IMG/VR virus record: IMGVR_UViG_2713896788_000026
Source of the DNA: a virus
Taxonomy: Duplodnaviria > Heunggongvirae > Uroviricota > Caudoviricetes
Reading direction: 5' to 3' (one strand)
DNA: 6,654 bases
Under the pieces are notes generated by a model that ran no database searches, was not told the origin of the DNA, and was given only the letters and a program-made list of their open reading frames with translations. This document shows, piece after piece, positions 471-6,409 of this stretch. The stretch's first letter is position 1, and every line of letters starts with the position of its first letter. Made by a program: the position numbers and the translations under genes.

Positions 471-1975
471 ACCGCCGACAGGGAAGTCAGTTTCTCTTCA
501 AACGCTTGTGCCTGCGAGGCCATCTTCCCCTCAAATGTGCGCTGTAAATCCGCCAGCACTGTGGAAAATTCTTCTCCCAGTGCACGAATAATGGACAGTT
601 CCCGTTCCGTCATTTTCTCAGTATCCCCCCTGAACATCGCTTTCACCGCATCATGCTCTGTTTCACTGATTGCCTTATTACCGTCAGATGCGCCGTCAGG
701 CAGCTGTGATGAAACTGTTTTCCCGGCAGACGCGAACGGATCCTCACGGGCATCACGACGGGACAGCGCCTCCAGACTGTAGTTCTGCTGCTGAAGATAC
801 AGTGCATCACCGCCGGCCAGGGGCGGCAGGTTCTCCCGTTTACGGGCCTCATTGGGCGTGAGAAGCGTATTTTTCACCGCATCCCCCAGCGTTTTCATGC
901 GCCGCTCACTGTCCATTCTCAGCAGCGTGGTGACATCAAATTCTGTACTCTCGTTTTCCCCCGTTTCCAGCGCCTCATCCAGTAACAGTTCAATGGACTC
1001 AATCAGCGTCTGCAGACACTGGGAATAATACTGCTGCTCCAGCGCCTCCACGTTGTCACTGGAAGGCGGGTGGCCAACGCCAATCTTGTAGGCCGGGACA
1101 CGGAACACCGAACAGACAATTTCAGCCGTCATTTTCAGTTGTTCCACCGTCTGCGCATCCACCGGTGAAAACGTCGTGGGGCTGTATTTTGCCCCGTTGC
1201 TCAGTATGGCCGTCTTCCCGGCATTTTCGCCCGTATATCCGCTGTCCCAGTTCCCCTTCAGTTTTTTCGCGTTTTCTTCCGTAATACTGCCGGGGACCTC
1301 AATCACGCCTGATGGTCGCCCGCCATTTCTGAAAAAATACGTCGAATTTGCCTGAATATGATGCCCCTGCATGGCGGCCAGTCCTGCGGCATACACCGGC
1401 GGCAGCCCCACAAGCGGATGAAAAAAACAGTTAAAACGGTCGTGGATCACCTCCCGGGCAGGCACCGTCACCGACTCTGTGATCCCACAGTTCCGGTCCG
1501 GCGTGATGCGGTAGAACACCTCGCCGTCATCCGCCACCAGAGGTTCAACCCGGTTCCAGTCCAGAATACGCAGTTCTTTGATCTGCCCCCGGGGGGTGCG
1601 GATTTTCAGCACCACCGTATTGCCGTGACGCAATTTGGAATTCAGCCACAGTTCAAAAAACTGGATGCGATTCTGCTGCGCATTAGGACGACGACAGAGA
1701 CGGGCAGTATCTCCCTGCCGCTTTTCCCGGCGTATTCCCTGTACATCAGTCTGCATCAGGCGAAGCCGCATTTTGGCAATATCCTGGGATATCAGCGAAA
1801 TGCATGAAAACACCGCGTGAAAGGACAAAACGGTTTCCGGATCGGCTTTCACCCCCTGCTGCCAGGCACCGGCAAAAGGCTCAGCCACCGCCTGAAACAG
1901 GGACCGCCAGCCCACTTCTCTTACGTCACGTCCTGATTTCTGGTTTTTTCGGGTTCGCCGCAAAAGGTTCCACAT
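1..1975 (-). CDS. Portal protein, HK97-family-like, with long repeat-containing C-terminal extension; 3' end not in window and interrupted by assembly gap
   Basis: ORF track 200..1975 (591 aa including 24 X). ATG at 1973-1975 (reverse complement) with GGAG about 8 nt upstream. Central region (FFRNGGRPSGVIEVPGS, AKKLKGNWDSGY, SPVDAQTVEQLKMTAEIVCSVFRVPAYKIG) matches the conserved core of HK97-type portals as I remember it. The stop at 200-202 is an artefact: the N run is 71 nt (not a multiple of 3); in the frame set by the repeat copies, 1-214 translates without stops, so the ORF stays open to the window edge. Confidence 0.85.
215..285. other. Assembly gap (run of 71 N) inside the tandem repeat
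   Basis: Literal N characters; flanked on both sides by copies of the same repeat unit, so the true length and copy number are unknown. Confidence 0.95.
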
Positions 1976-2142
1976 TCGCCATGCTCCGCATCACGTTTCT
2001 TTTTCTGACCTGCCGGACGTCGCGCTGTGATGTACTCCGCCTTCCCCAGGCGAACCAGCACCTCCGCACACGGCTGTGCCACATCACGGATATCCCCGGC
2101 CCGGGCATCATGCGTGCCCTGCAGATATCGGATCTTTGCCAT
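1921..2142 (-). CDS. Hypothetical small basic protein (73 aa); uncertain, overlaps the portal start by about 55 nt
   Basis: ORF track 1921..2142. ATG start directly after an in-frame TAA; only a weak AGG two nt upstream. Codon usage looks host-like (CTG, GCG, CCG, CGT; majority G/C in third positions by my count). Sits between capsid and portal genes. No family recognised. Confidence 0.3.
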   Translation of the reverse strand: MAKIRYLQGTHDARAGDIRDVAQPCAEVLVRLGKAEYITARRPAGQKKKRDAEHGECGTFCGEPEKTRNQDVT

Positions 2143-2152
2143 AACCTGTTAC

Positions 2153-2170
2153 GGGAGGCGCACGCCTCCC
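2153..2170 (-). promoter_or_regulatory. GC-rich perfect inverted repeat (GGGAGGCG-ca-CGCCTCCC) 17 nt after the capsid gene stop; probable RNA stem-loop
   Basis: 8-bp perfect arms read directly from the sequence. Not followed by a U-tract on either strand, so not a canonical intrinsic terminator; more consistent with an mRNA 3' stability or processing hairpin. Confidence 0.35.
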
Positions 2171-2186
2171 GTCCTCCTTATCAGAC

Positions 2187-4124: not shown

Positions 4125-4137
4125 ATCAGCCTCCTGA

Positions 4138-4162
4138 AAATAAAAAAACCGCCGCAGCGGTT
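4138..4162 (-). terminator. Putative rho-independent terminator or attenuator between the terminase large subunit and capsid genes
   Basis: On the minus strand: stem AACCGC, loop UGCG, stem GCGGUU, then UUUUUAUUU, immediately followed by the AGGAGG ribosome-binding site of the capsid gene. The stem is short (6 bp), so strength is uncertain. Confidence 0.35.
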
Positions 4163-4187
4163 CATGATGGTTACAGTGTGAACAGGG

Positions 4188-5849
4188 TTATATGAAAAAA
4201 ACCGCATATTCTTTCTTTTTCGGTTCCGGGTTAAGGGACATCAGGGAGACCGCATTGAACAGCGCCATCAGCGGGTCAATTTTTCCCCGTCCACTGGCCT
4301 GTTTGGTGATAAGAATGGCGTTACCTTTAGGCTCCACCCGGGCATTGCCGACACACCAGGCCATCAGGGGCTGGTCACCATGCACCAGCACCCCTTCAGC
4401 CAGTTTGCGCTCGGTGGTTTTAATGGCCCCGCCCAGTTTCCAGCCCTGGCTTATCCCCACCACAATTCCGTCGGGGATCCCGGCTTCCGCCAGTGAATCC
4501 AGAATCTGCCCCACCCCTGACGGGTCAATACCGATATGGTCCAGTAACTCAGCCTCATGAATGCGACGCACATATTCCGCCACTTCCGCCGTGTCATCCC
4601 CGACACGCCGGACAATGGTCATATCTCCACAGGCAACAAGATCCTGAAACCGGGACGCCTCGCTCTTCCGTCGGACCACCGCGGTTTCATGCGCCCAGGC
4701 ATGGCCCCAGCCCAGCCATTCGCGGGTTTCCCTGTCACGGCCAATCACGTACATTCCCAGCAGATCATCCAGGCCCCCGCCGTCAATCCCCACCGTCACC
4801 ACATCAGCGCGCTGCAGGATATCGTCCAGGCTGACGCGCCTGCCCTGCTGCTCCCAGAAATCCGCACCCGCCCAGCGGTCAGAACGCAGGGCAAGACCAA
4901 TTTCCACATTGGCATGTTTTGACATGAAGCCACGAAATGCTTCCTCACCAGCCTCCCGGGCTTTACGGTACTCCCGGTACAGAAAAGCCTCATCCACCGA
5001 ATAACCGAGATTCGGGTTAACCATGGCGAGGTTTTCCATCAGCAGGTGAGCCCCGCTTTCCACCATTTCAGGAGGATGCTCAAAAATCACCGGCAGAAAG
5101 TGCGGATCATGAATTTTGCCGTCACGGACATCCCGGGCGTACTGCAGTTTCTGTCTGAACACCCCGGCTGGCGGCTCATTCGACTGGGTGGTCGTATACA
5201 CCACAAACCCTTCCGGGCGGGAGGCAAGGCCGCCTATGGCTTCACGTAACATGTCCTCCGCTTTGTACTGCTTGCCAAATAACCACAGTTCATCAATCAG
5301 CGTCCCCACGGACTTGATACCGGATACCGTATTCGGATCGGCAGCCACCACCTTCAGGGTGGTGTCCGTCACCCTGTGGGTGATGGTCCGGATATGTGTC
5401 TGCACCTGACAGAGGTCATCCAGATCATCGTCCCGTCGTACCATATCCCTGGCAGGGTTGAAGGCGTTAGCCGCCACCTCCACGGTCGGGGCCAGAATGG
5501 TGTAGCCCGCCGCCTGCCGCCAGTTCAGTAACAGCGCCGTCATCATGATCCCGGCAGCCAGCGTGGACTTGCTGTTTTTCTTGGGGATAAGGATAAAAAC
5601 TTCCTTGATATGGCGTACACCGGTCTGCGCATCGTAGGAGCCAAACAGGGCCGCCACCAGGTCAAACACCCACTGTGCGCAGGACTCCCCGAACGTCGGG
5701 CTGCCCGGTGCATCCACAATCCGCAGTTGTTTAAAAATCGCCAGGGCATGTGCGGCCTGCTCCGGATAAATCGGAGCCGGAATAATCGACAGCCCCTTTT
5801 TCAGGCGCTCTGCCCAGTCCGGGCAGGCCGTGCTCCACACAGGTATCAT
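4188..5849 (-). CDS. Terminase large subunit (ATPase/nuclease)
   Basis: ORF track 4188..5849 (553 aa). ATG at 5847-5849 overlaps the upstream gene's TGA (ATGA junction); GAGGG about 7 nt upstream. N-terminal P-loop-like segment (ILIPKKNSKSTLAAG), acidic motifs (VVTVGIDGGGLDD) and C-terminal KIDPLMALFNAV are as I remember for phage large terminases of the HK97/Terminase_1 type. Confidence 0.9.
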   Translation of the reverse strand: MIPVWSTACPDWAERLKKGLSIIPAPIYPEQAAHALAIFKQLRIVDAPGSPTFGESCAQWVFDLVAALFGSYDAQTGVRHIKEVFILIPKKNSKSTLAAGIMMTALLLNWRQAAGYTILAPTVEVAANAFNPARDMVRRDDDLDDLCQVQTHIRTITHRVTDTTLKVVAADPNTVSGIKSVGTLIDELWLFGKQYKAEDMLREAIGGLASRPEGFVVYTTTQSNEPPAGVFRQKLQYARDVRDGKIHDPHFLPVIFEHPPEMVESGAHLLMENLAMVNPNLGYSVDEAFLYREYRKAREAGEEAFRGFMSKHANVEIGLALRSDRWAGADFWEQQGRRVSLDDILQRADVVTVGIDGGGLDDLLGMYVIGRDRETREWLGWGHAWAHETAVVRRKSEASRFQDLVACGDMTIVRRVGDDTAEVAEYVRRIHEAELLDHIGIDPSGVGQILDSLAEAGIPDGIVVGISQGWKLGGAIKTTERKLAEGVLVHGDQPLMAWCVGNARVEPKGNAILITKQASGRGKIDPLMALFNAVSLMSLNPEPKKKEYAVFFI

Positions 5850-6409
5850 CCGTTGCCCTCATTATCATTATTCACCACCAGGCGGGGTGGTGGTGGCACC
5901 GCAAAACGGTTAGCCGCTTTTTTCGCCGCGTCACCTTTTGCCGATTTTTTACCGGCATCCCCTTTTTTGTGGTGCGTGAACTGCGCCAGCTTATAAGCCG
6001 CATCCAGCGCCAGCCTGGGGTCGGTATTAATGTTCTCCACCAGAAGACGCCCCATCGCTTTCACCGGATCGGGAAGACCGTCCTCCATATACTCAATACC
6101 AGGAGATATCACCACGGGCGGTGGCATCTCCGGATTTGTTTCGTCCGGCTGTGGTATTGCAGCCGCCTCACGGCGACGGGGTTTATCCTCCGGCTCTGAT
6201 TTTTTCTGCCGATAAACAGGAACCTCATCCACCTCCACCGTCTCGCACTGTTTACGGGCTATAAACGCAAGCACCTCCGGATCTTTTGCCAGCTGCGAGC
6301 CTTTAACCCTGGCTGTCTTCGCCGAATAACCGGCGGCAAGGGCTGACGCTGTTTTGTTTTTCCCGGACATGAGCGCCAGCGCAAATTTTCGTTTTTGCGT
6401 TGTCAGCAC
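5846..6409 (-). CDS. Terminase small subunit
   Basis: ORF track 5846..6409 (187 aa). GTG start with GGAGGAGG 4-5 nt upstream. N-terminus (LTTQKRKFALALMSGKNKTASALAAGYSAKTA) resembles the helix-turn-helix DNA-binding motif of small terminase subunits; Lys/Pro-rich C-terminus; translationally coupled to the large subunit. Confidence 0.75.
   Translation of the reverse strand: MLTTQKRKFALALMSGKNKTASALAAGYSAKTARVKGSQLAKDPEVLAFIARKQCETVEVDEVPVYRQKKSEPEDKPRRREAAAIPQPDETNPEMPPPVVISPGIEYMEDGLPDPVKAMGRLLVENINTDPRLALDAAYKLAQFTHHKKGDAGKKSAKGDAAKKAANRFAVPPPPRLVVNNDNEGNG

Follow-up and report, generated by a model that had tools for sequence, protein, structure and literature searches.

Capsid-before-portal gene order in the head module of an Escherichia coli O157:H7 prophage and its relatives

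The DNA under study is a window of 6,654 nt from a tailed phage (IMG/VR record IMGVR_UViG_2713896788_000026) that encodes a head module of the HK97 type. The initial annotation of this window had read the gene order as small terminase subunit (terS), large terminase subunit (terL), protease-capsid fusion, small open reading frame (ORF), and portal, and both the ORFs and their family matches confirm that reading. Five genes, all on the minus strand, follow one another in the order terS, terL, a protease-scaffold-capsid fusion, a 73-amino acid (aa) ORF, and an HK97-type portal gene. The family-supported long ORFs of the window are restricted to this strand, and none of the plus-strand ORFs matches a Pfam family.

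terS (187 aa; 6409..5846) is identified by matches to PF03592 (34.3 bits; cut-off 26.1) and phrog_641 (E = 2.4e-68), and it overlaps by 4 nt with terL (553 aa; 5849..4188), which comprises a PF03354 ATPase and a PF20441 nuclease domain and matches phrog_9 and phrog_7622. The ORF that follows (645 aa; 4124..2187) matches phrog_617 over its full length, as well as PF04586, PF05065, and TIGR01554. Its S78 prohead protease domain spans aa 48–152 (window 3669–3983; PF04586, 34.7 bits; cut-off 21), and its HK97-fold major capsid domain spans aa 386–635 (PF05065, 52.7 bits), with the TIGR01554 model (78.3 bits; cut-off 27.5) aligning from aa 204. The linker between protease and capsid, aa 193–300, is predicted to be a coiled coil and appears scaffold-like. 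The protease part aligns with gp4 of phage HK022 (BLASTP E = 5e-9) with the catalytic His and the GxSVGF (Ser) motifs in register; the score of the protease equivalog TIGR01543, 46.4, is below its threshold of 59. The fused ORF as a whole aligns to the separate protease and major capsid protein (MCP) genes of Burkholderia and Moraxella phages.

Downstream of the capsid gene, the small ORF (73 aa; 2142..1921) matches phrog_829, an unannotated family (E = 2.3e-39). The portal ORF begins at 1975 and is still open at position 1, where the window ends. Its first part, the HK97-type portal proper (aa 1–454; 1975..614), matches PF04860 over aa 54–382 (267.9 bits; cut-off 39.1) and TIGR01537 (362.3 bits; cut-off 112), and the part that follows is an extension, here called ext. 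The interval 1921–6409, to which the initial annotation had assigned the gene order, reaches only 55 nt into the portal gene, the remainder of which lies at 1–1920. The ORF list of the window includes no separate scaffold ORF. Scans against Pfam, PHROG, and NCBIfam returned HK97-type families only, with no lambda-type portal, ClpP/S49-type protease-scaffold, decoration protein, or lambda E-type capsid, and scans of the window for Rfam families and tRNA genes returned neither.

In terms of origin, many closed E. coli O157:H7 chromosomes match positions 296–6654 of the window at 100% identity, a stretch of 6359 nt. The Shiga toxin (Stx) 2c phage 2851 (Pankowvirus pv2851) aligns with the entire query (100%) at 98.6% identity. 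Coverage of the query reaches 80% or more in 92 phage records, and 82 phage records are 95–99% identical, including the Stx phages 1717, BP-4795, YYZ-2008, and JLK-2012. Among complete E. coli genomes, 1286 of 5426 (∼24%) carry the module, with a median of 3 and a maximum of 15 copies per carrying genome. Both in phage 2851 and in the O157 chromosome, the head genes are preceded, on one and the same strand, by Q, stx2c (in 2851), the lysis genes, and an HNH endonuclease gene (PF01844, 26.9 bits), which in the closed genome is located 45 nt past the terS end of the window. On the other side, where the initial annotation had proposed to look for tail genes, complete records do contain them beyond position 1: a connector (gp6-like adaptor), head closure, gp10-like, tail terminator, major tail, chaperone, tape measure, and J genes. 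The region thus belongs to the late operon of a long-tailed lambdoid E. coli O157:H7 prophage of the Pankowvirus (2851) type, of which it forms the section for DNA packaging and head assembly. The 2851-type head module makes working particles. In the Stx2 phages Stx2a_F349 and 1717, terL is split by an IS629 element, and such copies of the module are probably packaging-defective.

The gene order departs from the HK97-like and lambda-like canon, as had been pointed out from the sequence: HK022 has terS, terL, portal, protease, and capsid. It is not, however, unusual. A homology and synteny comparison of the kind that the initial annotation had proposed reveals that the best matches, phage 2851, other Stx phages, and E. 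coli prophages, carry the same order, which is therefore common in a well-characterized group, the Stx-converting phages (2851, 1717, BP-4795, YYZ-2008, and JLK-2012). One genome per species was further scanned with a capsid alignment, which yielded 80 loci from Alpha-, Beta-, and Gammaproteobacteria with capsid identities of 43–80%. Wherever the contig allows the order to be read, these loci have terL, protease, MCP, and portal in succession, and in 0 of the 80 is the portal found between terL and protease. The arrangement of terS, terL, protease and capsid (fused or separate), small ORF, and portal is also present in four annotated phages of other genera, namely Salmonella FSL SP-016 (77% capsid identity), Pseudomonas PAJU2 (48%), Burkholderia vB_FUBS1 (39%), and Moraxella Mcat6 (37%). 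An enterobacterial prophage transcribes a polycistronic mRNA with the same order (PMC8156552). Portals that are related more distantly, such as that of HK022 (27.7% identity), belong to modules of canonical order.

We conclude that the window contains an HK97-like head module in which a block of small ORF and portal follows a block of protease and capsid, and that this arrangement very probably arose once, long ago, and became fixed in the clade. The clade with the capsid-before-portal order comprises prophage head modules of Alpha-, Beta-, and Gammaproteobacteria. Of the less-studied lineage to which the order had been taken to point, the separate lineage is borne out; "less-studied" holds only in the sense that our literature search found no structural or assembly study of this head module. 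That search likewise found no paper explicitly discussing the capsid-before-portal order. The order itself is plainly already known, being visible in public annotation and deposited and annotated in RefSeq phages and in many E. coli genomes. By itself it adds nothing new, as it is the standard layout of a common module; annotation and prophage-completeness tools that expect terL, portal, protease, and capsid in that order will misjudge this very common module.

A second shared feature of these loci is a GC-rich hairpin directly 3′ of the capsid stop codon. In the window, this hairpin (CGGGAGGCG-TG-CGCCTCCCG; 2152..2171, minus strand) has no T-run. A GC hairpin whose stem has 6 bp or more (median 10 bp) follows the MCP stop codon in 76 of the 80 loci, compared with 126 of 400 coding control windows, and the median minimum free energy (MFE) at this position is −25.1 kcal/mol versus −18.2 kcal/mol for the controls (p = 7e-22). 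Taken by itself, the E. coli hairpin is not significant against shuffled sequences (z = −1.2), and the signal therefore comes from the comparison across loci rather than from the E. coli sequence alone. HK022 (L089, 5193–5208) has the same kind of GC hairpin after its capsid gene (gene 5), which indicates that the hairpin predates the change in gene order. The hairpin may separate the high-copy capsid cassette from the genes downstream. In this clade, the portal gene is thus placed beyond the hairpin, grouped with the other genes of the 12-copy vertex (ext, adaptor, and head closure). The hairpin itself is a sequence pattern seen in the loci; an effect on expression, that of the portal in particular, is predicted from this pattern.

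Several points weigh against the reading given above. The 80 loci were picked by capsid similarity and so sample one clade. Whether it was the portal block or the capsid block that moved in the ancestral transposition is not decidable from the data. A T-rich tail is present in only 22 of the 76 hairpins, so most of them are not classical terminators. Finally, the presence of the hairpin in HK022 as well means that it does not explain the reason for the order change. It is close to an even chance, though somewhat below it, that selection does not act on the capsid-first order, which would then be a frozen accident without consequence for expression. The canonical order of HK022 is combined with the same post-capsid hairpin, which suggests that both layouts work, and we know of no effect of gene order on HK97-type assembly. 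Nothing speaks directly against neutrality; fixation in 80 of 80 loci fits either neutrality with tight linkage or selection.

From the protein families present, the particle can be proposed to follow the HK97 assembly route. The two terminase subunits, together with the adjacent HNH endonuclease, would cut and package the DNA. A dodecameric portal would nucleate a shell of the HK97-fold capsid protein, the N-terminal coiled-coil part of which would serve as scaffold, and the S78 serine protease would then remove this scaffold.

The protease-capsid ORF contains an in-frame internal ATG at codon 193 (3546..3548, minus strand), preceded at 10 nt by TAAGGA, a potential Shine-Dalgarno (SD) sequence at ∼3559–3564. 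This ATG aligns with the start Met of stand-alone capsid genes. Protease and capsid are encoded by one ORF in 51 of 78 loci and by separate genes in the other 27. Among 52 fused ORFs, the ATG is kept at the codon-193 position in 48, with GTG or TTG in three more, and an SD-like motif, often AAGGAGG or GAGGAGG, is found 5–17 nt upstream in 47 of the ORFs that keep the ATG, compared with a background of 13% of in-frame positions. The amino acids around the internal ATG are not conserved. The fused state is common to whole clades (Enterobacterales, Pseudomonas, and most Rhizobiales) at only 45–80% capsid identity. The conserved ATG and SD-like motif, the lack of conservation in the surrounding residues, and the persistence of the fused state across clades together tip the balance modestly toward the notion that the fused ORF is a nested gene with two products, a minor full-length one and a major one starting at Met193, and that this design is conserved in 47 or more lineages of proteobacterial prophages.

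In such a gene, the ancestral ribosome-binding site and ATG of the capsid gene would have been retained inside the fused ORF, and most of the capsid protein would be made from codon 193. The minority of full-length protease-scaffold-capsid protein would co-assemble via its capsid part and so carry the protease into the procapsid. Nested genes of this kind are present in lambda (C/Nu3) and in herpesviruses (UL26/UL26.5), where an internal in-frame start yields, besides the long protease product, a shorter one with the same C-terminus. By analogy, nesting in the present module may give a low ratio of protease to structural protein, although the short product here would be scaffold plus capsid and not scaffold alone.

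Two considerations temper this proposal. The SD-like motifs sit in a linker rich in Lys, Glu, and Gly, the composition of which alone raises the purine content, and the products of the 645-codon ORF are deduced from its sequence. We regard it as unlikely, but well worth keeping in mind, that the 645-aa ORF is made solely as a full-length polyprotein, from which the protease domain cleaves itself off every subunit, and that the internal SD-like motif and ATG are functionless relics. Such fusions are annotated as single proteins (the GenBank label for PAJU2 is "prohead protease fused capsid protein"), NCBIfam holds a model for them (NF045541), and the linker composition favors purine-rich codons. 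A single-gene arrangement, with protease, scaffold, and capsid functions in one ORF, has also been proposed for Pseudomonas phage MD8, the portal, protease, scaffold, and capsid genes of which are described as one co-evolving module (PMC8508860). However, retention of a start Met in 48 of the 52 fused ORFs and of GTG or TTG in three others, an SD-like motif in 47 set against the 13% background, and the persistence of fusion across clades at such capsid identities despite unconserved flanking residues are difficult to reconcile with relics. Single-gene protease-scaffold-capsid fusions have been described in Arthrobacter phage clusters AM, AU, and AN as well (PMC5513430); the MD8 and Arthrobacter fusions belong to sequence families that differ from those of this module. 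If the nested two-product gene is real, it would be a way to dose and encapsidate the maturation protease; our literature search found no description of protease dosing or encapsidation through a nested capsid start in HK97-like phages.

Identity to the E. coli counterpart rises and falls together for terL, protease, MCP, and portal (Spearman 0.42–0.67), which fits a co-inherited module and not a mosaic. A rearranged or mosaic module had been put forward as one meaning of the gene order. In its favor, the order is unlike that of HK97 and HK022, and the hairpins that flank the capsid cassette could be taken to mark module boundaries. A recent rearrangement in this prophage, or the joining of two head modules of unrelated origin into a mosaic, is nevertheless highly improbable: the same order is found in every relative examined, down to ∼37–45% capsid identity and in three proteobacterial classes, the four proteins diverge in concert, and the small ORF is conserved between capsid and portal. 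Still less credible is a mis-join of two contigs, which the initial annotation had named as a finding that would overturn its reading and which a 71-nt run of Ns, the mark of a gapped draft assembly, might have suggested, as that run lies within a tandem repeat of the portal ORF ∼1.6 kb from the capsid/portal junction, and every gene junction is identical in many closed chromosomes and is therefore not an assembly artifact. The N-run (215–285) is the only one in the window and falls in a tandem repeat with a 162-bp unit that belongs to the 3′ half of the portal ORF. Positions 1–214 match the closed genome exactly at an offset by which the 71 Ns represent 151 nt, so the gap was given an arbitrary length.

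The small ORF overlaps the start of the portal gene by 55 nt in E. coli. A core motif of ∼40 aa is conserved among the small ORFs of E. coli, Salmonella, Burkholderia, Moraxella, and PAJU2 and is followed by a variable basic tail. With an iterated profile, the small-ORF family was found in 55 of 79 loci, ending a median of 12 nt before the portal start. The protein has no match in Pfam or NCBIfam, and a protein search returned only close E. coli "hypothetical" proteins, a set too shallow for useful structure prediction. Within E. coli, variants of the small ORF shift frame at an A-run in the tail. The tail of certain distant relatives resembles, by eye only, a Rho-N/HeH-like helix motif.

The portal of the E. 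coli module is an 859-aa protein in closed genomes. Its first ∼454 aa align with the 445–465-aa portals of SP-016, PAJU2, FUBS1, and Mcat6, and its remainder, 405 aa, aligns with ext, which in SP-016 and PAJU2 is a separate downstream gene. Of the 80 loci, 71 have ext after the portal, 70 of them as an ORF of its own. In E. coli, the fused and split states differ by a single G. Alignment with JLK-2012, Stx2_EH1846, and phage 2851 reveals a run of six Gs at 625..630 (minus strand; a C-run on the plus strand) in the window and in phage 2851, and a run of five in JLK-2012 and Stx2_EH1846; the extra G puts the portal into the frame of the next gene and so creates the 859-aa fusion. Of 1063 matching E. 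coli records, 747 contain the exact G6 junction; the exact G5 junction occurs in 29 records. Where the run has five Gs, the two genes overlap by ATGA, with the ext start at 611–613. As the G5 run is followed by a rare AUA codon, −1 slippage or a programmed frameshift is possible in principle, which is speculation. Both this single-G switch and the internal start in the protease-capsid ORF bear on the stoichiometry of protease and vertex proteins in HK97-like phages and could merit a small study.

Within the window, the start of ext (1..613, minus strand) encodes an N-terminal helix followed by 54-aa (162-bp) tandem repeats, which include the N-run, before it is cut by the window edge. The closed genome has 3.3 copies of the 162-bp repeat. 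In general, ext opens with an N-terminal helix, continues with 27/54-aa repeats that differ in number, and ends in a C-terminal domain, in which a CBM5/12-like motif is weakly matched (20.6 bits, below the cut-off). ext has no match to MuF (PF04233). Repeat number varies widely among relatives, with extension proteins ranging from 167 to 731 aa. Draft assemblies are regularly interrupted at the 162-bp repeats, and contigs that end there have left hundreds of "partial portal" fragments in the databases; a protein search with the part of ext inside the window returned short E. coli fragments only. An AlphaFold2 model of a stand-alone ext (P0159; 15-row alignment) has a mean predicted local distance difference test score (pLDDT) of 51.5 and a predicted template modeling score (pTM) of 0.23, with only the N-terminal helix confident, and is too poor to draw on. 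Sequence searches of the PDB gave no informative match for ext and one weak match for the capsid protein (9d9w, E = 0.0019).

The proteins P0130, P0133, P0136, P0159, and others have, by eye, the helix, repeats, and C-terminal domain and are collinear with ext. Precomputed Pfam domains on this group are none or PF28083 and include no gp6-like connector family; no Pfam scan of the group was run. The database naming of proteins of this type is probably a propagated misannotation. Some ext proteins (L031, L044, L070, and L071) end in collagen-like Gly-x-y repeats after a conserved KKGRDGKDG motif, ends that recall phage fiber proteins.

Compared with known systems, the module is closest to phage 2851 and the Stx lambdoid siphophages 1717, BP-4795, YYZ-2008, and JLK-2012, which have the same genes in the same order with the same flanking HNH and tail genes. 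Phage 2851 has the same 859-aa fused portal and shows no difference of substance, whereas JLK-2012 and Stx2_EH1846 differ in that the G5 run leaves portal and extension as two genes. With HK97 and HK022, the module shares an HK97-type portal, an S78 protease, and an HK97-fold capsid whose scaffold part is N-terminal, in the absence of a separate scaffold gene. Also shared are the GC hairpin that follows the capsid gene, the location of an HNH gene beside terS, and, downstream, connectors of the gp6-like, head-closure, and gp10-like kinds. It differs from them in that the portal follows the capsid rather than preceding the protease, protease and capsid form one ORF, an extra small ORF precedes the portal, and an extra protein follows it; the portals are only 27.7% identical, and BLASTP does not detect any similarity between the capsid proteins. 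PAJU2 and FSL SP-016 have the same order, a fused protease-capsid, the small ORF, and a portal followed by an extension gene, but their capsid proteins are 48% and 77% identical, respectively, and portal and extension are separate genes. The "portal and MuF-like fusion proteins" annotated in Arthrobacter phages are likewise portals fused to the product of the gene normally next to them; the extension here differs in consisting of a helix, 27/54-aa repeats, and a C-terminal domain without a MuF match.

Upstream of terS, five GTTAAC(AT) motifs in direct and inverted orientation occupy 6484..6608. GTTAAC occurs 6 times in the window, where 0.72 occurrences are expected by chance, with five of them within 6486–6605, and the array, which neighbors the HNH endonuclease gene outside the window, is a candidate cos region or binding region for the terminase small subunit (cosB-like).

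The 63-nt gap between terL and the capsid ORF contains a terminator-like GC hairpin with a T-run (4146..4163, minus strand), found in a terminator scan; a strong SD sequence (CAGGAGG) and the GTG start of the capsid ORF come after it. Hairpins of different sequence occupy the same place in SP-016, PAJU2, and Mcat6. The pre-capsid hairpin is not general across the 80 loci (median MFE −15.1 kcal/mol versus −18.2 kcal/mol for controls), and terminator-like sites in the window are no commoner than chance (6 versus 7.3).

Two metagenome-assembled genomes, labeled Flavobacteriaceae (L049) and Prevotella (L072), carry this otherwise proteobacterial module with ∼46–47% capsid identity, which may reflect binning contamination or real transfer.

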